In this document: piece by piece, positions 1,684 through 47,240 of the stretch
How the letters are laid out: the number at the start of each line of letters is the position of its first letter
Numbering within the stretch: the stretch's first letter is position 1
Assembly: GCA_000091205.1 (NCBI GenBank)
Contig: AP006501.2
Direction: 5' to 3' (one strand)
Source of the DNA: Cyanidioschyzon merolae
Lineage: Eukaryota
DNA length: 64,000 nucleotides
Notes under the pieces: model-generated
Databases searched by the model: none
The model's input: the letters and a program-made list of their open reading frames with translations, nothing else
Told to the model about the DNA's origin: nothing
Program-made: the position numbers and the translations under genes

Positions 1684-2551
1684 TATCCACGTGTAGCTTT
1701 ACGTGCTATTTCGATACGCTTGACACGAGTTTCAGATAAGATATACGCACAACAGAGCGCGTGTGTTGGAGAATCCACGCGCAGTGGCGAGCGCACGTTT
1801 CACGTTCCCGGGAGCGTTCATGAATCGCTACGCACACAGGCGCCTCCCAGTGTTTTCGAACCTGTCGCTTGTTCGCGCTTTCTGTTCATCCAGGCACAGT
1901 TTGAGCCTGAGAGACTGCCCCACAAAGTTGGATTGCATCAGCTTATTAGGTCCCGTGTCTTCAACATCACATATCGTCTGATATTGATACAGTCTCGGTT
2001 GGTGAACTCCTCGCGTTTGCAGCCTCTGGTTGAACCTAACTTTGCAGGGACTCCTCGAAGTTGTGGCCTCGATGCCGTCCAAGTCTCGTTTGCATCCCGT
2101 TGGGCAAACGCTTTTCATCGTCTGTCTCCCCTCTTCTCCGTCTTGTTCTTCCTATTCGTTAATCGCTCTTCTTTATTCGATGGTCGGTGAGAGAGGATTT
2201 TTTCGGTTTTTTTCCAGCAGCCGGCGATGGCATCCCTGCGGGATCTCCGACTACCACGTCCATGCTTCTCCCCTGGATTCTTTTTCTTCAAATGAGCGCA
2301 CTTCAAATGCATCAGCTACAAACCGCGAACATGCATTCGATGACAAGCACCTGGGTGTGAAACACAACTGAGATGAAAGACCACAAGGAGTATGCTCCTC
2401 ATTTGGCAATAGAGAGCTTGCCTTGGAACGCGAGTTGTCCCCGCAACGCCGTTCGTATTACCTGCCGTGTTGGGCTTACTGTTGAACGAGGCTTTTGTGC
2501 ATTCGTTGCGCAACTCGCGAGTGAGCAAACGCTGTCTAGCTGCCCGCTGCT

Positions 2552-4243: not shown

Positions 4244-5109
4244 GCAGAGCGCCTCTTGTAAATGTCGTGTTTACCTGCTGCGGTGCCGCGCTGCACACCG
4301 AGCATCCAGGGCGTTTGTTCCGCGAGGCTGCTGCATGGCCCGCGTGTTCCAGGGGCCTGCGTGGGCCGTTTCGACGCCCCGGAGGCACCAGTCCATGCGG
4401 ACTGCTCGCCAAGGCCGTCATGAACGACCTACCAGCGACAAAGGTTTCGTGCGCTCGGCACCGATGTCAAAAACGGTGCCGCAAAAACTCGCTCCTCAGA
4501 TACTAGTTTAACGTCTCGCTTCTCGCCTATTTCAGAGAAGCGAGCCTCGGCGCTGTTGCACGCTGCACAACGAACGAGTATGAAAAGTGCAGCAGATCGT
4601 ACCTGTGATCTATCGAATATCATATTCAGCGCAAAACGACGCTGCTCAATCACGCCAAACTTTTGCGTTAGCGGTGCTGCACGACATATGCACGTTTGCA
4701 GCACGACGTGACGCGGAGTCGAAATACGCAACGAATTTACGGCTGCTGTCCCTGATTCATAGCAATAAATGCATACTGACAGTACAGTTCGTGTCGCAGT
4801 CACCAAGCGAAAGTCGCATTCGTCAGCGTTCGATCAGATCACGCAGGGAGCGCCTCTCTACCAAGCGCAAGTGACCCAACCTGCCCGCTCACTTGCAAAG
4901 AACAAAGGCTATGAACCTTGAACTCTGTCTCCAAGTTGTCTCTTATCAGGCTTTTTGTGCTTGTAAGGAACGCAACGCTACGCCCAGCCTTGCCTGTGCA
5001 GTCTTTGGTGCAGGCGCACCTGCGGAAACCTCCCCAGTAGCGTAAACTGGTCGTAGCGTTCAATACACGTCGACGTATCGGGATGCCCGACAAAGAGACA
5101 CACGCTACT

Positions 5110-5473: not shown

Positions 5474-6241
5474 ATGACGCAGCCACCTTCTGCCAGTGCG
5501 GGTGAGGCTGATGCCTTTCAGTCGCTTGTTCAGGAAGAGCTCGGAGAGAATGCGTTCTCCACAAGCACGCCGGTGAACGATGGCACCGGGGGCGGCGACG
5601 TTTTTCTGCCAAACGAAGGCGTCGAAAGTGACGCAATCACCACGCTTCCGGTTTCTACGGCAGGCACGGTGCGTACACCTTTTGATCAAGACGAAAAAGA
5701 GTTCCCTGTTGGAAGATCATCTGTCGATGGGAAGCTATGGAAGGGCGCTGGAGGTTCGACGTTTGCGATCGAGGGCGACTCAACCAGTGGACGCGACGCT
5801 GTACAGGAGGCATCTCGGGCGCGGGCACAGCGCATCCGCGAACGCGATGAAACTGAACGAGAAGTCCGTCAAAAGTCTCGCGAAGCAGCCGTGCAAGTGT
5901 GGGAAAAGATGCACCAGGCCTGGGAGAAAACATGCCAGGAGAAACGTGTCGAGACGAAGAAACGGCAAGACAAGCTTAGTGAAGAGCGTGATGCGCTTTA
6001 TCAGGCCATGCTTGAGAATGGTGACAACAATAAGCCAGCATGGCACCTCGTTCGGGCACTGATAGAGTCTAACAGTTCGGGATTGGGAGCGGGCCGATCA
6101 CTCGGGACACCTGGCGGCATGTCTGGACCCGGTGCTGCCAGTGCTGTTTCCGAGGAAGATGGCAGTTACCGTAGCCTCCGTACTCGCATGAAGGATGTAA
6201 TCTATAGCTCCGCCAGCGAAGCGAGCCCGAAGAGTCGTTGA
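5474..6241 (+). CDS. Clathrin light chain-like protein
   Basis: The ORF-track start at 5405 is GTG and the first ATG is at 5474. The N-terminal 'GEADAFQSLVQEELGE' resembles the CLC consensus 'EEDPAAAFLAQQESE'. A central charged heptad region ('RIRERDETEREVRQKSREAAVQVWEKMHQAWEK') follows. The C-terminal 'KPAWHLVRALIES...LRTRMKDVIYS' resembles CLC 'TEWERVARLCDF...VSRMRSVLISL'. Confidence 0.5.
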   Translation: MTQPPSASAGEADAFQSLVQEELGENAFSTSTPVNDGTGGGDVFLPNEGVESDAITTLPVSTAGTVRTPFDQDEKEFPVGRSSVDGKLWKGAGGSTFAIEGDSTSGRDAVQEASRARAQRIRERDETEREVRQKSREAAVQVWEKMHQAWEKTCQEKRVETKKRQDKLSEERDALYQAMLENGDNNKPAWHLVRALIESNSSGLGAGRSLGTPGGMSGPGAASAVSEEDGSYRSLRTRMKDVIYSSASEASPKSR

Positions 6242-6981: not shown

Positions 6982-8463
6982 TCAGCACACACGAGATGAT
7001 GGTGCACTGCTTTTGGAAGGGCAAAGAACACAAGCAATGCGCTCGAATGCAACTTGTAGCGTTTGCGTATCCTCAACTGCCGAGAAGCAACATCTATACC
7101 ACCCGGGTTCAGGAGCATGGCAAACACGACCCGGATAGATCAACACTCGCGCTTCTCGAAAGAGTCGCTCAGCAAGTTCCAACTCCGCTTCCCAGGTCGC
7201 CTCGCGAAGAAATCTCTGCAAGCCAATCCATACGAAGAATCCAGCCTGGCTGGGATAGATGCGCACCTGCTCTGCCCCAAGACTGGTTTGAATCGCTTGA
7301 ACAGCCACCTGATACGCTTCCTCTAGTCGTCGTTGGTTTGCGACGAAAAACTTGTGCAACCATTGCTCGTCACTCAGCATTCGGCAAAGCACTGCCTGCG
7401 TATCCCGACTGGGCGACGAAAACAAACACGGTGCTCGAATCGCCTGCAACAGAGCCTGGTTCTCCGTAAAGAGAACCCCACATCGCATGCCACTCATACA
7501 GAGGTCCTTACTAAACGTCCATACGACATGCACATCGTTGCCGAGACCCTGGACGGCCAAAACGTCCGCTACGGAACGAAAACGCCCCGCATGGCTCTGG
7601 AAGACCGAGAGCGCGTACGCCTCGTCGCTCACCAGGTGCATGCCATGGGATCGACACCATTGAATGGAAAGCTCTAGTTCTTCTGTCGATAGAATATTGC
7701 CCGTTGGATTCCCGGGACTGTGCAGGAGCAACACTCGCGGTCGTTGCCCGCTCGCTCTACAGGTCCGGTCCGCAGTTTCAAGCGCATCCCTTGTCAGACG
7801 GTGGTGGTTATGGAGCGCTGTTTGTACAGGTACGGGTATGCACTTTGCACGGCAGCTCAGGTCAAAGTCAAATCCCGGATAATACGGTGCCGGAATCAAC
7901 ACGGCATCACCATCGTCACACAGGGCACTGAATACCAGGTCAAGTACAGCGCTTGCACCAACGGCACACAGGTAGTTATCGGGGTTGGCTGCACTTGCTG
8001 GGCCGCCTTTCGAAGCTGCAAATATATGCTCTCGAAAGAGTTGGCTAAGTGCCTTGCGAAAGCGTAACTCGCCGAACATGTAGTCGTACTGAAGGCACTC
8101 GTTGCGCGGCAATACGTCGCTGCGTTCCCGCTGAAACTGGGCTAAGACGGGTCCCGCACTGAGCGCGTTCTCGGCCACCAGCAGTGAGATATAACCATTA
8201 GGTTTTAATTGTGGATCGTATGCGTCCTGTTTCGCTGTAAAGGACCACTCAATCTGGCGTGGCGGTGCACGACTCGCAAGCGCCCTCCCCCGGTCTGAAA
8301 GCGTCTCTGCTGCGCTTTTCAGCACGCTACTCGTCTCTGGTTGTTGCATGCAGACACGTATACTTCGCTGTTGCTGCTGGGACGTAGCTGAACAGAGCAG
8401 CCGATCCCGACACTGAGCGCGAACGAACAAAGCTTCTCGGTAAACACCAGACTGGAGGAACAT
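6982..8463 (-). CDS. Class I/II PLP-dependent aminotransferase, ACC-synthase-like
   Basis: ATG-initiated 493-aa ORF. The PLP-lysine motif 'TFSKDLCMSGMRCGVL' matches ACC-synthase-type 'SLSKDxGxPGFRxG'. Other family blocks are 'NGYISLLVAENALS' and 'LLHSPGNPTGN'. Confidence 0.8.
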   Translation of the reverse strand: MFLQSGVYREALFVRAQCRDRLLCSATSQQQQRSIRVCMQQPETSSVLKSAAETLSDRGRALASRAPPRQIEWSFTAKQDAYDPQLKPNGYISLLVAENALSAGPVLAQFQRERSDVLPRNECLQYDYMFGELRFRKALSQLFREHIFAASKGGPASAANPDNYLCAVGASAVLDLVFSALCDDGDAVLIPAPYYPGFDFDLSCRAKCIPVPVQTALHNHHRLTRDALETADRTCRASGQRPRVLLLHSPGNPTGNILSTEELELSIQWCRSHGMHLVSDEAYALSVFQSHAGRFRSVADVLAVQGLGNDVHVVWTFSKDLCMSGMRCGVLFTENQALLQAIRAPCLFSSPSRDTQAVLCRMLSDEQWLHKFFVANQRRLEEAYQVAVQAIQTSLGAEQVRIYPSQAGFFVWIGLQRFLREATWEAELELAERLFREARVLIYPGRVCHAPEPGWYRCCFSAVEDTQTLQVAFERIACVLCPSKSSAPSSRVC

Positions 8464-8562
8464 CCAGACTCGGCATCTCGAAGCGGTGGATCACTGCGGC
8501 CGACACTACGGCATTCTCCCGAGACGCTTCCATTGCGGTATCGAGTACGCTGATGAAGCGGG

Positions 8563-9256
8563 GAACTTGGCGACTGAGACAAAGTCTTCAACGTAGAAGC
8601 CTCATGGTGCAAGGATCGGGTGTATAAAGGTACGAGATACTGCGAACTTGGCGACTGAGGCACAGTCTTCAACGTAGAAGCCTCATGGTGCAAGGATCGG
8701 GTGTATAGAGGTACGAGATACTGCGAACTTGGCGACTGAGGCACAGTCTTCAACGTAGAAGCCTCATGGTGCAAGGGTCGGGTGTATAGAGGTACGAGAT
8801 ACTGCGAACTTGGCGACTGAGGCACAGTCTTCAACGAAGAAGCCTCATGGTGCAAGGATCGGGTGTATAAAGGTACGAGATACTGCGAACTTGGCGACTG
8901 AGGCACAGTCTTCAACGAAGAAGCCTCATGGTGCAAGGATCGGGTGTATAAAGGTACGAGATACTGCGAACTTGGTGACTGAGACACAGTCTTCAACGAA
9001 GAAGCCTCATGGTGCAAGGATCGGGTGTATAAAGGTACGAGATACTGCGAACTTGGCGACTGAGACAAAGTCTTCAACGTAGAAGCCTCATGGTGCAAGG
9101 ATCGGGTGTATAGAGGTACGAGATACTGCGAACTTGGCGACTGAGGCACAGTCTTCAACGAAGAAGCCTCATGGTGCAAGGATCGGGTGTATAAAGGTAC
9201 GAGATACTGCGAACTTGGCGACTGAGACAAAGTCTTCAACGTAGAAGCCTCATGGT
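8563..9256. repeat. 81-bp minisatellite, 8 full units plus a 40-bp partial unit
   Basis: Units start at 8569, 8650, 8731, 8812, 8893, 8974, 9055, 9136 and 9217. The consensus is 'GGCGACTGAG(G/A)CA(C/A)AGTCTTCAACG(T/A)AGAAGCCTCATGGTGCAAGG(A/G)TCGGGTGTATA(A/G)AGGTACGAGATACTGCGAACTT'. The array lies between the 5' end of the aminotransferase gene and the 3' end of the permease gene. Confidence 0.95.
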
Positions 9257-9602
9257 ATATGCATGATATCTAAATCCAACGATACATAAACTAGACCCGC
9301 GCACGCAAACTGCTTGTACGTGACTGTTGCCCCCGGAGAGCAACTGCATACCCTGCCGAGTCCTCGTTGACTTGAAGCAGCGAAAGCGACTGCTTTCGCT
9401 ACTTCCATACCACATCGCTACAGCGCTATCCGCTCGTGAACGCTTTCCGTATGCACCACCGCTCTTGCTCGGGTTGTTCCCGGTACTGCTTCACCTAGAG
9501 CAGGTCCAGTGCACGCACGTGTTTGTTGCCGCAAACTTGTTTACGTTCTTGTTGGTTCTCATGTTCCACATCATGGGTTTTCTTCTGGGCTACCACTTTC
9601 GT

Positions 9603-22744: not shown

Positions 22745-23138
22745 GAGCATTCTTTTCCAAAAACAAAAAATCCAAGGGACAGGTATCGACCTGGATGTTG
22801 GGAATCCTTAAGGGCCATCATCGTCGAATTCGACGAAGAATAACCGAAGAAGAAATCCTCTTTTCGTCGACTATCGAGCGAACATGAGCGAACGATGCGG
22901 ACGAAGAAGACCGAGAATGGATGTAGGCGAGAAAGTGTGTGCCCGACGAGACGATGACGAGACTGTAGTGGCACAGAGGGCGCGGGTTCTGGGAATCCTT
23001 GGAAAATTGCGTTCAGCCAGAGGCAATAAACGTATGGTGCTCGTGAACCGAGACTTTAACGCCGTCATCAATATCAGACGATGGGCGGTGCTGAAGACGA
23101 GACACGAGGAGCTTACGCGATCTAGCTTTGTGGAGTAG
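22745..23138 (+). pseudogene. TnpB/Fanzor-like nuclease relic R1 (C-terminal fragment)
   Basis: In one frame it reads 'LFVDYRANMSERCG' (22860-22901) and then 'LVNRDFNAVINIRRW' (NRD... at 23046-23081). This matches the TnpB pattern of TSKxC plus Zn ribbon followed by RuvC-III 'RDxNAAxNIRR'. An in-frame stop lies upstream at 22809-22811. It is collinear with R6 at a constant offset of 19,692. Confidence 0.5.
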
Positions 23139-24125
23139 CCTCTCATGGGCGATGTGTACAGGGAGAAGCTGAAACCGATAGCAGGTCGCCTGTGTAGATA
23201 GGCTGGGAGGCGTCTGCACGTGGGTGTCAGTTTACGATCTCGAGGCGACGCCTCCAGTGGTGCGGAAAGGCCGTTCTGTCTGCGCTAATGCGAGACGCGT
23301 GGTGGTTACCTGGGCCCTGCTTTTCCCTTATAGGCTATTACGTGAGCCCTTGGGCACCTTCAGCACAGAAACGTTTCCAGTCTGCAACGTGGCGGGATAA
23401 GCGAGTCGAGCTCGGAGCGCTCCGTGTACAATCACGCTGTCTCCTTTCGCAAGTTACGATGCGTACCTGTTTCGCGGCTGGATTTTTGGCACCAAAAGCG
23501 CTGTAGGTACCGGGTTCAGGTACAGTTCCATCTCGCCAGATGCTGTTGGTGTCGAAGGATCGGCTTCAGGAGGAGGTAAGCGTCCGGCATTGCGTACCAA
23601 GAGGTCTGCGACGAGGCGTTCATCGCGCAGTTCGTCGCATCAGCAGGCGGGCACTGCTTGTAATCGACTGCCTGAGCGCTTCATTGAGACGATTCATAAA
23701 AGCCATCGTCGCCTTCAGATATCACTCTGAGAACTGTTTGGACGCTGCAGAACGATTCTCGGGATGCGCGAAACATGCCCAGAGTCGGCACCTGGCATGG
23801 GGTAGGGTCCTGGTCTGTTGTGGTGTAGGATCCTTAAATCTAACCAGGTTTCTGGCGATGCGCATCCGCTTCTGATGACCACGAAAGAGGCCTCGTTCGC
23901 TTCACTAGCGCATGTGTGTGTTCGGCAAGTCCCAGTCAAAATGCCCAACAGGTATAGAGGCTTGCTCATTCCAAAGGAACAGCGGTTATCGAGTCTACAG
24001 TGGGCGCTCGCGCCACCGCGGGCTCATTCTCACACGCTCACCGCAGAGGTTCGTTTCCTAACGAGCAACTCGCGCGTCTGCAGGCGCATTCTCCAACGAG
24101 ATGCCGACCCTGAAAACGTATATTT

Positions 24126-24282
24126 CGCTGTATTCCAAGTCTGGAATCATCCGAGGCACTAGATGCGAAGGCAGCCGGTTTCGGGAAGTGCTCGTCCCAG
24201 TCTGATACCGGAAATCCCGCTGTATTCCAGGTCTGGAATCATCCGAGGCACTAGATGCGAAGGCATCCGGTTTCGGGAAGTG
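24126..24282. repeat. Two direct copies of a 65-bp unit, 92 bp apart
   Basis: 'CGCTGTATTCCA(A/G)GTCTGGAATCATCCGAGGCACTAGATGCGAAGGCA(G/T)CCGGTTTCGGGAAGTG' occurs at 24126-24190 and 24218-24282, upstream of the YggS-like gene. Confidence 0.85.
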
Positions 24283-24562
24283 GTAGTGCCTCCATCCGAT
24301 CGTATATCTCGTTGTACCCCAGGTCTGTAATCATCCAGATCACGACATACATAGGCATTATGTGTCGGGTACTCGACATTCCGCCTTGCTCGTGCTTCGC
24401 GCTGGCATACGATACAAATGAAGCACAGCCGCAGTTGCGCAGTCGCGGTTGCCAGGCCCGCGTTGCGTACGGCTGCGATGCCCGCCGGAGGACACAGCCT
24501 TGTGCTACGCTGGGCTCGTGCGGCGTTGCGCCCGTATACTGTTGGGCTCCGTTGGAGACGGT

Positions 24563-40552: not shown

Positions 40553-41284
40553 TCAGACCAGTGCGTAGAGTACTGTGAGGTTTTCGAGTGCGGCCCTCAT
40601 GCCTGGCGGGATCGACTCATGATGCGAGACGTCAGAATACGTCCATACCGAACTCAGCACTGACAGCGTGATCAGCAGCGCGACCCAGAAGCGCCAATCA
40701 CGAGAAACCTCTCTCCAGGTAGGTGTTCTCGCTCTAAACTGCGACCATAGTTGGCGCACTCGGGCAGAGCTGCGTGTCCAGACGGTTGGCGCCGGCCGTT
40801 CCCGGGGCAGCTGGCTCCAGTCGATTTTTCCCTCACTCACGAACGCCTTCCATTCTTCGTTCCAGTCGATCAAGCTTTTTGGTACTTGATGTTGTGGATT
40901 GCGCTGTGGTATGCTTCCGCCGGTATTGCCGGTTTTATCGGCAGGCGCACCGCCTGCGTTCGAGTTGTCCTCGGACTCGTGCCGCGCTCTATCCGGCTGT
41001 CCAGCCAGGCACGTGAGCAGTCGTCTTCGTTCTTGCACACCGTGACAGGCGACTCTGCGGGGCAACGCAAAGCGTGCTCCAGACGTTGAGCGAGTAGCGC
41101 TGCGGTTGCGGGCCCGCTGCGCCAGCGCAGGCGCTGGTGGTGAAGGGCGCGCGACCAGGAACCGCACGCTCGAGCTCGCTCCCGTCGTAAACGCAACCGA
41201 GCGCTCCGGGTTCCGCGAACACTCCTGCCCAAACGTTACCTCTTGACCCTGAGTACTCATCCGCCGAAACGTGTGCAACTTCAT
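40553..41284 (-). CDS. Hypothetical protein with a single C-terminal TM segment
   Basis: ATG ORF of 243 aa. It has a basic N-terminus, the segment 'DWNEEWKAFVSEGKIDWSQLPRE' and then the TM segment 'FWVALLITLSVLSSVW'. No family was recognised. Confidence 0.45.
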   Translation of the reverse strand: MKLHTFRRMSTQGQEVTFGQECSRNPERSVAFTTGASSSVRFLVARPSPPAPALAQRARNRSATRSTSGARFALPRRVACHGVQERRRLLTCLAGQPDRARHESEDNSNAGGAPADKTGNTGGSIPQRNPQHQVPKSLIDWNEEWKAFVSEGKIDWSQLPRERPAPTVWTRSSARVRQLWSQFRARTPTWREVSRDWRFWVALLITLSVLSSVWTYSDVSHHESIPPGMRAALENLTVLYALV

Positions 41285-41739
41285 CGATAAGCAGTTGCTG
41301 CGTGCGATCGCTGCAACGCTACACCAACGTACAGAGGTGAACGTCTATCATAGAATCTGACGCTACACACCAGTGCAGAGACTGATGCGTCCCAGGCGTT
41401 CGCGCGTTCGATCTCGAAAACGATGACTGTTATGTGCTGTTATATCCGTAGATGTCCAGCCAAAATTTTTTCAACTCGAGACTGCTCCACCCATTCTGTG
41501 GTGGATGGCAGGCGATCGACTCCACAATGCAATGTATCGTACAGATCATAGACGAAATCTCTCTAGGATGTATTCTGTGCGAAACTGTGCAAGGAGGACT
41601 GTATTTCTTGTTCAGGTGAGTCATATCATAGTGCTTAGATGGTTGAGGATTACTGAAAGGCACATGTAGATGCGCTTTGCGCAAAAAATATTATGAAAGA
41701 CTGCTCATCGTCAATGATAGAAAACGAACCGTTGATCAG

Positions 41740-42840
41740 CATATGGAAAGTAAAACCAACGATCGTAGACACAGCAAGTGTCTCTGTTTCTCAACAGCTT
41801 GTTCACGTGGTACTCAAAACACTGGGGTACAGTCACAACAAAGTCCGCGTTCACGCACGACTCTCTTCCACAGAAATCGCAGCGACAGCGTTCCTGAAAC
41901 GTCGCGATCGCTATGATACAGAGAAACGTCGGTTATTTTTTTCAGTGTATGAGACTTGCTTCAGAGGATACGGTCGGAACGTCCATGGGTATTTGCAGAG
42001 AGGGAGCCCGTTGTGTCTATGACCGAACTCGAAGAGATACAGGTTATCATCTTCTATTCTAGCAGCAGTGGATCCATTTGGTGGCCTCAGTTTCGCTTGT
42101 AAAGAAGTCTCGTAGAACAGCAGCAATGCTGTCGACTCGTTAAAGACTTTTCCCCGGACCTCTGGCGACGTTCTTCTACTGTACAACGTAGAATTTCAGC
42201 ATTCACTTTGCGTTTGGGCTTTTCCGGATTCTATCGGGGTGCAGCTGCTTTTCACTCTTCCGTCCTCTCCGAGATTCAACGCTATAAAGAGGAGTGGTTT
42301 CTATGGTGAAACGCGTTGATCGGTCCATTGTACGAATCGCCGAGGCGTTCAGGACACGGTGACGCCAGGGCACATTTTGTCTGTCTGCCGCGAGTGCCTC
42401 TCCCGCTGCGAAATTCCTCACCCGAGTGCTTAAAGAGGTGCATTCATTTTCAAAAATAAAAATCCAAGAGAAGGCTATACACATGCAAACTGGGTATTCA
42501 GGAGTGCCATCATCACTGGATTTGACGAAGAAAACAGTAAACAAGGCCAATCCCAGAGGAACAGGAGAAGACCAAGAAGCACAAGCCGGAGGCCTGACGT
42601 CAATGGCCGCAAGAAGGACCACAGTACAACGAGATCGTAGTGAAAACCTGTCTTTTCGGGTATTTCGAGGATCCGTGCAAACAAAAGTTGCGAAATGGCC
42701 ATCAGAAACCGTGTCGAGTCGTGCGCCATGAGTTTTATGGACGCCTCTTCAGGCCGAATGCATTTGGTTAAGGTCATGCAACGCGACGTGACGGGCATCA
42801 AAATGGGCGAGGTTCCAGTGGAGTCTCTCGACCAGATCTT
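41740..42840 (+). pseudogene. TnpB/Fanzor-like nuclease relic R6 (heavily decayed)
   Basis: It has an N-terminal 'IVDTASVSVS' (41762-41791). Its C-terminal part is collinear with R1, with anchors 42440/22747, 42506/22814 and 42524/22832. The RuvC-III position has decayed to 'NRVESCAMSFMDASSG' (42707-42754). Confidence 0.35.
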
Positions 42841-43344
42841 CATTCGCCACTTGATGTTTCGCACAGGGCAAACGTCGAGGAGAAATGAACGAGTGCATGC
42901 CATTCACGAAAATGACGCCGAATATCGCTTCGACGGTGCTCGACACAAGCTTGACTCGTGTATTTAAGAATACGGGGCGATCAAGTACCTCATGAACCCG
43001 AAGAACCATTTGACTATGACCCTTGAACGCATCATCATACGCTTCATGTTTGCACTCTACCCGGGCCACTCTCGCATCGGGACATGGGCCATCATCATCG
43101 GCATTACGAACGATCGCCAGCATGAACGGGAGATCGAATTCATCGACAAGAAGACACCGCGCAGGAGAAAGAATGAGGACTCTGTGATCTGTGCCGCTAT
43201 TCAAGAGCACCGTGCGGTCTTGGGGCTGGTCAATCCAGCAGAATAGGTATCCGATATGAAAAAGAAAGATGTTATCCTCTCATCCTGCGTTATTTCGTGT
43301 TTCTGAGTCGAGAACTCGAATGCAAAGCCGAAATATAGCAGAGT

Positions 43345-44250
43345 GTGGGAAAAATAGTGACGGGGAAACGGAAGGCTGCGCTTCTGGGGAAACGCTTCAA
43401 CGTGGTTCCAATGTGCAACATCAAGTCACATATCGTGACTATCTACTCCAGAGTCCTGCACGGCATCATGAGGCAGCTCTACCCGGAGTTCAATCGACGG
43501 AAGATAGAGCTCACCGGTGAAAACCGGGAGACTCATTGGAAGAGTATCTTCGATTGCAAACGTCTGAAAACGAGCAAGAAAAAGGTATTCGCGGGCAGGA
43601 TCGAGACCGATGGGGTCTCCATACGTGTACACTACCAGCGGTTGAAGGCGGGTCGTCCTATTGTGTCCACGGCTTCGCCGTGGCGAACCATGAAGATGAG
43701 AAGGAGGTGGATCCTGCGACGCAGTGACCTATCCCTGGATAGGTCACTGCGTCACTATCAACCCGAAGCACAAACCGAACACGAATATCCATGCACACAG
43801 ACGTCGCCAACGTTGCATTCTAACAGCAAGCATCCGAAGCGCAACCTCTTCATCATCATCGTAACACCCCGCGGTGTCTCGATTCGACACAGACCAGGCG
43901 TCGTTTTCATACTGGCGGTTGAGCGCAGCGACAGAGGCTTTTATGTTGCGTGCGAGACGCACCGAGGCCCGCAGCACCCATCCCCAGGGCGTGTACTGCA
44001 AAGCGAACTGTAAACCGCGCTGCGAGGCATCCGATGCGAAGCACCCGAACACAGGCCCCCGGCACCTGAGCACCCTGGAATCCGCTCAAATATGTCCAGT
44101 TCGAATCGGTACCTCTGGGTGCGCTCGCACCGACACCATGTACCCGTTGGGCAGCAGGATCCCCGCAGACACTCGTTTACGACCAGTATCTACGATAAAC
44201 GCGCCATCGACGAAAAAAAGCAGTTTCAGAGATACAGTGTGTTCCGCTGT
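43345..44250 (+). pseudogene. TnpB/Fanzor-like nuclease relic R7 (N-terminal half best preserved)
   Basis: '[29 protein letters not shown]' (TDGVS at 43606-43620) is followed after a frameshift by '[12 protein letters not shown]' (Asp codon 43710-43712). A possible 'INAPSTKKSSF' lies at 44195-44227. Beyond 43760 the assignment is weak. Confidence 0.4.
43718..43753. repeat. Perfect 36-bp palindrome (17-bp arms, 2-nt centre)
   Basis: 'GACGCAGTGACCTATCC CT GGATAGGTCACTGCGTC', read directly from the sequence. It starts 6 nt after the RuvC-I-like Asp codon of R7. Confidence 0.95.
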
Positions 44251-44728
44251 TGAACGTTGCAGCGACAAGCAGGATGCACAGTGCGGAGATAGCGCGGATG
44301 CCTCGTCGTCATCGTCGTCGTCGCCGTCGCCGTTACCTGCCCTATGCAGACAACAACAAGCACCGTACAACATCGAGACTCGCACACACCAGCGAGCGGT
44401 GTGTCTTCTGGTTTCACACACCCATACGCGCGCTGTGCTGCACGGTCATCGCCTTCGCGCCGTTCGCCAGGGACCCCAGACAAGCCGCGGTTGCTGCGGG
44501 AGCGCTCCCGTGTCCGCTGCAGTGGGTCAGCGTCCGCCAATCGTCCCGCAAGCATCCGCTTTTGGCGGTTTTTTCGATGCTCCCCTGCTGTCCGTTTAAG
44601 CAGGGGCCTCCAATGCATCATCCATTCCACCCAGTTACACTCTTTTCGTGAAAACGAGGTGTTCTTCATTATACCTGCATCCAGGGCACGTGCAACGGCC
44701 GCTCGACACCTTGTAGCTACGCAGATAC

Positions 44729-46876
44729 CTATGACACAAACTGACGGCGATCTTGTTCGTCACGCTTCCCATGCGGGTTGCTCGCCCGAAATCGTTGCCC
44801 TGAAGCAAGCCGTTTCCGAATGAGGTCTTTCAGGCGATCGCGATTCTTCCACTCATCTCCAAATCCGCCACCGCCTCCGCGTCGTCGAATTTTCTTCGCT
44901 CTCTCGAGGACGTCGAGACAGATGCGCGGCGGTGCACTGAAGCCGAAGCTTTTCGCCACCGCCGCAATGTCGAGCTCGTGCACATTGAATACATCTTTCA
45001 TGGAGTGACTCGCATACGCTTGGAGGTAGGAACGGAATCCGTCCCGCGCAGATTTCTGAAGATAGTAATTGCCTTCAACTAATTTTTCCAGCTGGGTCTG
45101 AATATCAGCAAGTTTCTCTTTGGGAAACTCGTACTCGTTCAGAGGCACTTTGGCATCGCGCAGATGCTGCAGAAACCCGACTTCCGATGGCAACAGAAAG
45201 AGAATCGCCCGTCCGCGACCATGAACGCCTCGAGCGGTGCGCCCCACCCGGTGGATGTACTCTTTCGGCTCGTCCGGTGGGTCGTACTGCACAATCCAGT
45301 CGACGGCGGGAATATCGAGACCACGCGCAGCTACGTCCGTGCATAAGAGTGTGGCGTGCTCACGCCGAGCGAACTCGAAGAACGTCGATGTTCGCTTGCT
45401 CTGTTTCTGTTTCCCGTGCAGATCCAGAACAGGGACGTCTATATAGTTCAAAAGCTCGGCATAGAATTTCACTCCGTTGCAGGAAGACATGAAGACGATG
45501 ATCTTCTTGCGCTGATTGCGCTTCAAGAACGTGAACAGCAAGCGGAAACGCTGCTCGCTGGGCACAATCGTGAAGCCCTGCTGCAGGCCCTCAACGGTGG
45601 CAACAGGCTGTTCTGCGTCGATACCCAGATGAAGCGGTTTCTGCTGAAAACTTACTTTGGCCAGATCCTCCACTTTGGTTGTTTGAGTTGCGGAAAAGAG
45701 CATTGTCTGCCGGGTCTTTGGCAGTATTCGCAGAATTTCATGCATCTCCTCTTCAAATCCGATTTCCAAGCAGCGATCCGCTTCATCAATCACGAGAAAG
45801 CGAAGGTGCTCAAAAACAAAGCCCCGTGTGGACTGTAGATGGTCCAGCAAACGCCCAGGCGTCGCAACGAGAATATTTGTACCGTTGATGAGCTTTTCAG
45901 CTTCGGTTCGGCGGTTTGCACCACCCATGACGATCGCTCGGGTCTGGTGATGATGTGAAGCAAGATCGTGAAGCACCCCAAAGATCTGCATCGCCAGCTC
46001 GCGGGTAGGCGCGATGATGATCGCACCAGTGCCATTACGCGGCATCCACTTGGCCTTGTACAGCAATTCAACAATGGGGATCAGAAATGCGAGCGTCTTA
46101 CCGGAACCTGTTCGCGCAGAAGCGAGAATATCTCGACCAGACAGCGCTAGCGGGATCGCTCGCGCCTGAATCTCTGTCATCCTTGCGAAACCCATTTCCT
46201 CAATGCCTCGTAGCGTCGGCTCGGATAGCGGCAGTGAATCGAAACGATGAGGTGTCAGAAGGCCTGAACTCGGTTTCGGTTGCTCCTGTTCCGAGGCGTG
46301 CTCCGACGATAAGCTCTGTAACGCAGGAGACGACTTCTGTGTCACCTCTGGGCAGGGTCTGGCCAGAGGCTCCATCTCGTGCACTGTTGCTCGCGAGGAT
46401 GCAACCTCTTCATCTGCGGGCGTTCTTGCTGCAGCGTTCTGAAGCTCGGTTTCCATCACCGGAGCTGGCGTCCGCAACTCTGCACGTTGTAACTCACATA
46501 TCGAAACCCCCGCGTCTTCATTCGGGTTCCCAGCAGCTGCGTTGGTTGACGCGGAGGCCGACTTCACCGACTCGGAGCAGCGTTCGCGCTTGGCGTGCAA
46601 CTGATCGGTGAAAGTCGCAGCCTGCGTGCGCGTTCTGGATGAACCGTAAGCGCCAGCGTTCCTCGCGACGACTTGTGCCGCACCAGAAGCAGGCCTGCTC
46701 GCGGTGCTCGTCAAGCGCTCCGTCGCGCTAACAGAAGATACGTCAGCGTCGCGAGCGAGCAAGTCGCTGTGACAAGCACGAGGGCGCTCTCGCGCCGATC
46801 GCTTCCGGCTCGCGACTACGTCCGCCTGCTGCTTCCGTTTGCTGTTCTCGCTTGCGTGCCGGATCCGACTTTTCAT
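44729..46876 (-). CDS. HAS1: DEAD-box ATP-dependent RNA helicase, HAS1/DDX18 subfamily
   Basis: The track start at 46960 is GTG and the first ATG is at 46876. It aligns near-continuously with DDX18. Matching blocks include '[10 protein letters not shown]', '[14 protein letters not shown]', 'PTRELAMQ', 'VIDEADR', 'SAT', '[39 protein letters not shown]' and '[17 protein letters not shown]'. Confidence 0.9.
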
Positions 46877-47240
46877 ACCTATAGAGGAGCGATCCTCCGG
46901 TTCGCTGCTGAGTTCTGTCGATAGATCCACAAAAGAGGTTGACTCCGAAGGCGCACACACTCCACACTACACCGCAAGCTCGCTACGAAACGTGCAGTAC
47001 CGTTGCCTTGGACAACAATGCTCGTATGCAACGAACAAAAGAACACCTGGATACCCACGACGCTGCTCGATCTCGTGAAATGAAACACGCCTTGTTGGCA
47101 CTTCGTGAACGTGTACCCCAGGAACTAGGCCTATCGCTCGACTTGTTGTACCAGGTGTGTAGACGCACTGCGCCAGCAGCAGCGGCAGCAGCAGTCGGCG
47201 CTCCTGGCAGATGATGCAGCGCGTCCGATCGTGGCATAAC

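Follow-up and report, generated by a model that had tools for sequence, protein, structure and literature searches.

A perfect 36-bp palindrome at the 3′ truncation breakpoint of a decayed CMe-1A (Fanzor1) copy in Cyanidioschyzon merolae

We analysed a 64-kb stretch of DNA (hereafter the window; all positions refer to it) from a 1.28-Mb chromosome of Cyanidioschyzon merolae 10D, in which a perfect 36-bp palindrome lies where the homology of a decayed transposon copy to its paralogs ends. With a probability of roughly two in three, the palindrome is a functionless mutational scar: a dead copy of the CMe-1A family would have been truncated, and inverted templated synthesis at the deletion junction would have produced the two arms.

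Results

The palindrome and its statistics

The first-pass annotation of the window had described a perfect palindrome of 36 bp with 17-bp arms at 43718–43753, and we find exactly this. The segment GACGCAGTGACCTATCC-CT-GGATAGGTCACTGCGTC is a perfect inverted repeat, in which two 17-nt arms with 17/17 complementary positions flank a 2-nt spacer. The features of the locus are as follows.

41496–43724, plus strand: decayed, 3′-truncated CMe-1A (Fanzor1) copy, as judged by blastn, tblastn and protein homologs
43675–43724, plus strand: second half of a 75-nt (25-aa) linker unit, the last retained piece of the element (profile HMM, alignment A4)
43718–43734, plus strand: left arm GACGCAGTGACCTATCC, with the outer 7 nt element sequence and the inner 10 nt non-family
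43735–43736, no strand: spacer CT, 2 nt, non-palindromic (read from the sequence)
43737–43753, plus strand: right arm GGATAGGTCACTGCGTC, with CTGCGTC as the outer 7 nt
43754–44728, no strand: right flank, single-copy non-coding DNA (nhmmer, tblastn, blastn, Rfam)

When all perfect hairpins of the window were ranked, the palindrome came first with its 17-nt arms, followed by a runner-up with arms of 10 nt. The longest arms in 20 first-order Markov simulations of the window were 8–10 nt, and the palindrome is therefore not due to chance but lies far beyond chance expectation. Folded as single-stranded DNA, it reaches −18.8 kcal/mol, with z = −7.3 relative to shuffles. A search of the genome for further copies, proposed in the first-pass annotation, was carried out within the window, where no other copy of either arm was found with up to 3 mismatches allowed, and over the other family copies examined, all of which lack the palindrome. 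An Rfam scan of 41000–45000 gave no match.

The first 7 nt of the left arm (43718–43724) are the ATQ codons, ordinary coding sequence of the element. The inner 10 nt (43725–43734) have no match in the family consensus, which runs on as GAGGTGGAGG, and the TGA at 43725–43727, within the left arm, closes the open reading frame. The element's final 7 nt recur in exact reverse complement as CTGCGTC, the outer 7 nt of the right arm; over this length at least, one arm must have been copied from the other. The right arm also overlaps a direct repeat, GTCACT-GC-GTCACT, which is shared with the flank (read from the sequence). We sought an alternative template for the inner 10-mer in the window and in the non-orthologous fetched loci and found none; the sole template found for either arm is the opposite arm.

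The host element is a decayed CMe-1A copy

Six of the seven long ATG-started ORFs of the window are exact matches to annotated 10D proteins (BAM82963 to BAM82982), and the seventh matches a longer ORF whose cluster holds the shorter annotated 10D protein BAM82973. Long, bacterial-looking ORFs occur on both strands because the genome is intron-poor.

To the left of the palindrome lies the element that the first-pass annotation had labelled R7. Comparison of 41300–44800 by blastn with four independent paralogous loci (L003, L006, L007 and L013, with their duplicates) gave 68–75% identity across 41496–43724, and tblastn with pieces of L003 matched 42532–43724. A phmmer search with the peptide encoded upstream of the palindrome gave 35 homologs (E = 3e-70 to 1e-28), and the protein homologs of the copy carry DUF8286. 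Together with its CMe-1A N-terminal domain, IETDGV motif and acidic linker, these matches identify R7 as a decayed copy of CMe-1A, the old Fanzor1 transposon family of C. merolae. Of the element, there remain the non-coding/small-ORF part on the 5′ side and roughly the first 400 codons of the Fanzor1 ORF, up to the end of the first acidic linker repeat; several frameshifts and stop codons interrupt the copy. C. merolae carries ~150 CMe-1A copies, each of them ~80% identical to a consensus of roughly 3 kb; terminal inverted repeats are absent from the family, and it could be assigned to no transposase class (Bao & Jurka 2013, PMC3627910). The window copy resembles this family in being ~72–75% identical to other copies, and differs from it in lacking the RuvC motifs and the 3′ end; the palindrome is not a family feature (PMC3627910 for the family).

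The assignment of the family to the TnpB/Fanzor fold rests on Bao & Jurka 2013 (PMC3627910) and on the motif pattern described below. Pfam returned nothing for the family proteins and the six largest ORFs of 41300–44800, and NCBIfam nothing relevant for the family proteins. Against the PDB, single-sequence and profile searches reached at best SpuFz1 (8GKH) at E = 0.7, which is not significant; an angiogenin match was rejected as spurious. An AlphaFold2 model of the family member P0191, built from a 14-sequence alignment, was unusable (pLDDT 32).

The Asp next to the palindrome belongs to a linker repeat

The longer homologs carry 1–6 copies of a 25-aa acidic repeat with a consensus of approximately TKDEDEKEADPATQEVEDNDLVVG, followed by a conserved GADPGNTNIITIAAPKR and then by VVAYGAGRW, PVDEFRTSYTHHELGC and FVNRDFNAAIN. 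These downstream motifs fit the D...[TS][TS]...RD pattern of Fanzor1. As its RuvC-I-type motif, the family has GADPGNTNIITIA on the downstream side of the repeats. All 14 sequences of alignment A2 keep the Asp of this motif, and the conserved RuvC-I Asp is thus the Asp of GADPGNTN. The first-pass annotation had assigned a RuvC-I-like role to the Asp of EVDPATQ, immediately left of the palindrome. This label does not hold, as the EVDPATQ Asp is not conserved and sits in the variable-number linker repeat, where other repeats and copies have Gly, Glu, Leu or Ser. The G-A-D-P-G-N-T-N motif of RuvC-I, D-E-F-R-T-S and R-D are all absent from the window copy, with no match to the right of 43724, and the window copy is a truncated remnant, not a functional member of the family.

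In alignment A2, the acidic repeat (…KDEDEKEADPATQEVEDNDLVVG…) occupies columns ~240–400, between the N-terminal domain and the RuvC-I motif, and the number of tandem copies differs between CMe-1A elements from 1 to 6. Several 127-aa homologs stop near DPAxQ, and we rejected a shared structure behind these ends, which have separate simple causes. The ortholog, P0001, is terminated by the TGA of the palindrome. In P0006, as read at L007, a CAG has mutated to TAG and the sequence continues normally beyond it, and P0002 and P0003 both end in ...EEDPAM (protein level only).

Element homology ends inside the left arm

The retained linker sequence ends with GAT CCT GCG ACG CAG (DPATQ), which forms the left side of the breakpoint. 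The paralog alignments that reach the 3′ end of the copy stop at 43724, 7 nt inside the left arm, or at 43719, 2 nt into it, for the L007–L012 locus, which is mutated there. A profile HMM of seven linker units has one match in the window, at 43675–43724 (profile positions 26–75, E = 1.3e-11), and this match ends exactly at 43724 with the last position of the profile. Alignment A4 shows identity through ...GATCCTGCGACGCAG, after which the paralogs read GAGGTGGAGGATAAC and the window reads TGACCTATCC.

The right flank ends where a HAS1-like DEAD-box helicase gene (44729–46960, minus strand) has its stop codon. No match to the flank was obtained with an nhmmer profile of the 3′ half of the element or with the linker-unit HMM, and the best tblastn score in the flank, 21.9 bits, compares with a shuffle mean of 18.5 ± 1.6 and a shuffle maximum of 23.5. 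Local, seed-chained and semi-global DNA alignments of the flank with the element were no better than shuffles or controls. By blastn, the flank finds only its orthologs and is single-copy in everything examined. Nor did nhmmer find an element 3′ terminus downstream of the palindrome, as an internal deletion would have left. Degenerate linker/DPGNTNIITIA pieces suspected by eye in the right flank (CGAAGCA, GAACACGAATATC, TCATCATCATCGTAACACC and TACTGGCGG) were rejected, with local-alignment p values of 0.015–0.18 per match and with results of chaining, unit HMM and semi-global alignment no better than for shuffles or other window segments.

As paralog homology stops at 43724 and nothing detectably derived from the element follows up to 44729, the palindrome sits on the 3′ truncation breakpoint itself. 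The loss begins with the second linker repeat, takes in the complete RuvC nuclease region and the 3′ terminus, and amounts to at least 0.9–1.2 kb when measured on L006 and on L003/L007/L013. The suggestion made from the sequence in the first pass, that the palindrome marks a breakpoint or an inverted-duplication junction, is therefore upheld by the homology that stops within the left arm and the unrelated single-copy DNA to its right. The reading frames had been noted as harder to follow rightward, which agrees with the end of family homology at 43724. Compared with the other family copies, the palindrome stands where their sequence continues, and nothing element-derived is detectable to its right. 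The palindrome might also have been ordinary coding sequence of intact members; it is absent from the other family copies examined, and its outer 7 nt are coding.

The palindrome is present in independent assemblies

An identical 36-mer occurs at the same locus in six JGI metagenome contigs (L001, L002 and L016–L019) from at least five separate assemblies. Five of them (L001, L002 and L016–L018) are 98.6–99.1% identical to the window. The sixth, L019 (JGI24721J26819_10026188), has 93.6% identity to the right flank of the window over 1033 aligned columns and differs from 43754–44728 by ~58 nt of indel; the right flank is therefore length-polymorphic between strains. The first-pass annotation had cautioned that palindromes can be assembly artefacts, and chimeric reads or fold-back library artefacts can indeed produce them. 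However, because six independently assembled contigs carry the palindrome unchanged while differing from the window by ~1% elsewhere, it is not an assembly artefact, and we regard the chance that it arose in the assembly or cloning of the reference genome as negligible.

A scan of metagenomes with the helicase C-terminus, made in search of a pre-event allele, returned only ~99% identical orthologs and distant helicases; the orthologs all carry the palindrome, with no intermediate relative among them. Conservation of the stem among contigs of ~99% identity is uninformative because only ~0.4 changes would be expected in the 34 arm positions. At ~43676–43680, 10D has a specific 1-bp deletion (GCTTCGCC-GTGG in the window versus GCTTCGCCCGTGG in L001 and L002), which shifts the reading frame shortly before EVDPATQ. 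The wild contigs keep the frame open from VGKIV... through DPATQ (protein P0001), and their stop codon is the TGA of the left arm.

A second palindrome in a CMe-1A paralog

The metagenome contig Ga0080006_1147743 (L013) holds a perfect palindrome at 5003–5037, TACCTTTCTTGGGCGC-TGG-GCGCCCAAGAAAGGTA, with 16-nt arms and a 3-nt spacer. It lies within VVAYGAGRW, in the RuvC-II-proximal coding part of another CMe-1A copy, and both of its flanks are still homologous to paralogs. Compared with paralogs, about 10 nt of its left arm have given way to a reverse-complement copy of the right arm, for a net change of +1 nt. This pattern is the signature of a short template switch and shows that such a process operates in this lineage.

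In ~200 kb of Cyanidioschyzon DNA examined, we found two such palindromes, both inside CMe-1A copies. In the non-CMe DNA of this sample, a GCA/TGC triplet repeat was the sole further perfect hairpin whose arms reach 11 nt. The 30 kb sampled in addition to the other fetched loci (L024 and L025) held no palindrome of this kind, a triplet-repeat match being the only one there.

Discussion

A scar of inverted templated synthesis

The most probable course of events begins with a dead CMe-1A copy that lost its 3′ part, possibly together with some adjacent host DNA. DNA synthesis at the junction would then have copied ~10–17 nt in inverted orientation from the sequence directly beside it. Either a 3′ end would have folded back on itself (snap-back priming), or synthesis would have moved briefly to the complementary strand, with the 17-nt perfect arms around the 2-nt spacer as the outcome. 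Two sub-models can be written for this course, and both fall into one known class, templated inverted synthesis at a junction. In sub-model (a), the right arm would be original flank: the broken end ...GACGCAG would pair with CTGCGTC through a 7-nt inverted microhomology, and the paired element end would be extended by 10 nt and then joined. In sub-model (b), the left arm would be the original end, which would fold back, copy itself over 17 nt and be joined to the flank via a GTC/GTCAC microhomology. Each has its cost. If the right arm is original, the 7-nt inverted microhomology had to pre-exist in the flank, and with the left arm as the original, the model does not account for the 10 nt TGACCTATCC. 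Because a hairpin loop requires at least 3 nt, a simple snap-back primer could not have formed with the 2-nt spacer seen here, and an extra step would have been needed, such as untemplated addition, ligation or later mutation. The enzymes responsible may have been those of alternative end joining, microhomology-mediated or polymerase-theta-like, or the junction may stem from a template switch in replication. The single origin of truncation and palindrome, the identity of the original arm and the enzymology are inferences.

The genetic background of C. merolae bears on this choice. The alga lacks Ku70, Ku80 and Lig4 (PMC6635534, text and Table S1), and its end joining would therefore be expected to depend on microhomology or on a template. 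For polymerase theta, the same Table S1 gives a combined 'POLA/POLQ group' as present, not Pol theta separately. Inverted templated inserts at deletion junctions also occur in Pol theta/alternative end-joining snap-back events, as these are described in the studies cited in PMC6635534 (van Schendel et al. 2016, Kent et al. 2016), and the present junction is alike in this respect. It is alike, too, in its candidate microhomologies, GACGCAG/CTGCGTC (7 nt) or GTC/GTCAC at the right edge, and in the missing Ku/Lig4. Typical templated inserts, however, measure 3–30 nt and have loops of more than 2 nt, whereas the spacer here has 2 nt.

Short template switches offer a second likeness. In the four-point model (Loytynoja & Goldman 2017, PMC5453318; PMC8794818), the novel bases are the exact reverse complement of adjacent sequence, as they are here, and such switching creates perfect hairpins de novo (PMC5453318, PMC8794818). 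In short template-switch or quasi-palindrome mutagenesis, a perfect stem is likewise made in one step. The palindrome of L013, a substitution cluster with almost no length change, fits the template-switch model exactly. Classical template switches, however, return to the original template within tens of bases, whereas the sequence on the right is unrelated here; either the return point was at least 1 kb away, which amounts to a deletion, or the switch was a separate event.

The latter alternative, in which an ordinary deletion or abortive insertion truncated the copy and a later template switch overwrote the junction and made or lengthened the palindrome, is possible, though we judge it unlikely. 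It gains from the L013 analogue, which shows a template-switch palindrome in the CMe-1A family without any deletion, from the perfection of the arms within an otherwise decayed copy, and from the direct repeat GTCACT-GC-GTCACT, which is compatible with a palindrome of 12-nt arms that was later extended to 17 nt. Yet it requires that a rare palindrome, of which the 64-kb window has no other, coincide with the breakpoint to within 7 nt. The single event that we prefer faces evidence of its own on the other side: all six orthologous contigs already carry the palindrome, no palindrome-free or intact-element allele was found, and only one analogue occurs in the ~140 kb of fetched loci (many of them redundant).

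As to its age, the arms are perfect in a host copy that is ~72–75% identical to its paralogs and carries frameshifts and stops, which suggests that the palindrome is younger than most of the decay of the copy. The distribution among contigs suggests in turn that the event is older than the ~1% split between 10D and the metagenome strains.

Hairpin-capped ends and mobile-element termini

Palindromes at breakpoints can also arise when a hairpin-capped break, produced by a hAT, Transib or RAG-type transposase or by cruciform processing, is opened off-centre and filled in, in the manner of P nucleotides. The footprints of V(D)J recombination and of hAT excision contain palindromes from such off-centre hairpin opening. 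The product would be a palindrome centred on the breakpoint, and the 'hairpin-mediated' deletion proposed in the first-pass annotation is of this type. Nevertheless, we hold this origin to be improbable: it would give a palindrome without a spacer, whereas the centre here is a non-complementary CT, 17 nt would be very long for P-addition, neither a second transposon nor a transposase of the hairpin-forming type was detected in the vicinity, and the homology to the element fails to resume on the right, unlike in an excision footprint.

The first-pass annotation had further considered an inserted hairpin element, pointing to the IS200/605 group. IS200/605 elements use DNA hairpins at their ends, and the bacterial relatives of this nuclease family belong to them. 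More broadly, the palindrome could be an IS200/605-like or Helitron-like end, a small palindromic insert, or a structure recognised by a protein or RNA. It does resemble the subterminal hairpins of IS200/IS605 and the 3′ hairpins of Helitrons in being a short, GC-rich DNA hairpin that adjoins a TnpB/Fanzor-type gene, and its strong, perfect stem is kept in 6/6 orthologous contigs. It differs from them in that it neither lies at an element terminus nor is repeated among copies, and the recognition hairpins of TnpA are imperfect or bulged, whereas this one is perfect. The six largest ORFs of 41300–44800 contain no Y1 (TnpA) or RepHel domain, and no CTRR-type Helitron terminus follows 10–12 nt after the hairpin on either strand, where the flanks read ACTATCAACC and GCAGGATCCACC. 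The hairpin is single-copy in the window, and none of the other family copies examined has it, whether internally or at the true 3′ end. Its outer 7 nt belong to the ordinary coding sequence of the element, and Rfam has no match. Since its conservation at ~99% identity is uninformative and CMe-1A has neither terminal inverted repeats nor an assignable transposase class (PMC3627910), we consider a functional or mobile hairpin very improbable, and the idea of an IS200/605-type end finds no backing in the other copies.

Significance of the scar

By itself, the palindrome is of little consequence, an ordinary mutational scar in a dead transposon copy and a new example of an already known kind of mutation. 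The analysis nonetheless corrects the annotation of the locus, which is a 3′-truncated CMe-1A/Fanzor1 pseudogene with no nuclease domain, the Asp at the side of the palindrome not being the catalytic RuvC Asp. It also adds one clean case, and a second in a paralog, of a perfect hairpin probably formed de novo by templated inverted synthesis in an organism without Ku and Lig4. If such scars were common at transposon deletion junctions across the genome, they would offer a direct sequence read-out of the break repair that shapes an extremely compact eukaryotic genome. A wider proposal would be that in Cyanidioschyzon, a free-living eukaryote lacking classical NHEJ, dead transposon copies are regularly truncated and overwritten through fold-back or template-switch synthesis, or that the palindromes are by-products of Fanzor-linked breaks. 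We regard this proposal as improbable; if true, palindromes with 16–17-nt arms would be a recurrent and datable signature of genome streamlining.

Other CMe-1A pieces and repeats

Two intergenic fragments of the 3′ part of CMe-1A (profile positions about 650–920) lie elsewhere in the window, at 22952–23222 (plus strand) and 1835–2076 (minus strand), and similar solo 3′-part pieces occur at L003:3033–3512 and L007:1707–2148. Copies that are 5′-truncated or consist of the 3′ part only thus seem to be common.

The true 3′ ends of the family (L013:~5520–5560, L007:~5510–5550 and L003:~7440–7480; alignment A1) share a conserved stem-loop with apparently compensatory differences, GCGTCGTTCGA-CTT-TCGAACGGCGT versus GCGTTTTTC-TTT-TGAAAGGCG. 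This stem-loop is unrelated in sequence to the palindrome and is a candidate omegaRNA or terminal hairpin.

Two tandem repeats were also observed in the window. An 81-bp repeat of about 10 units (8 overlapping 300-nt register copies) spans 8482–9348 in an ORF region; at 24110–24385, a 92-bp unit is repeated 3 times.
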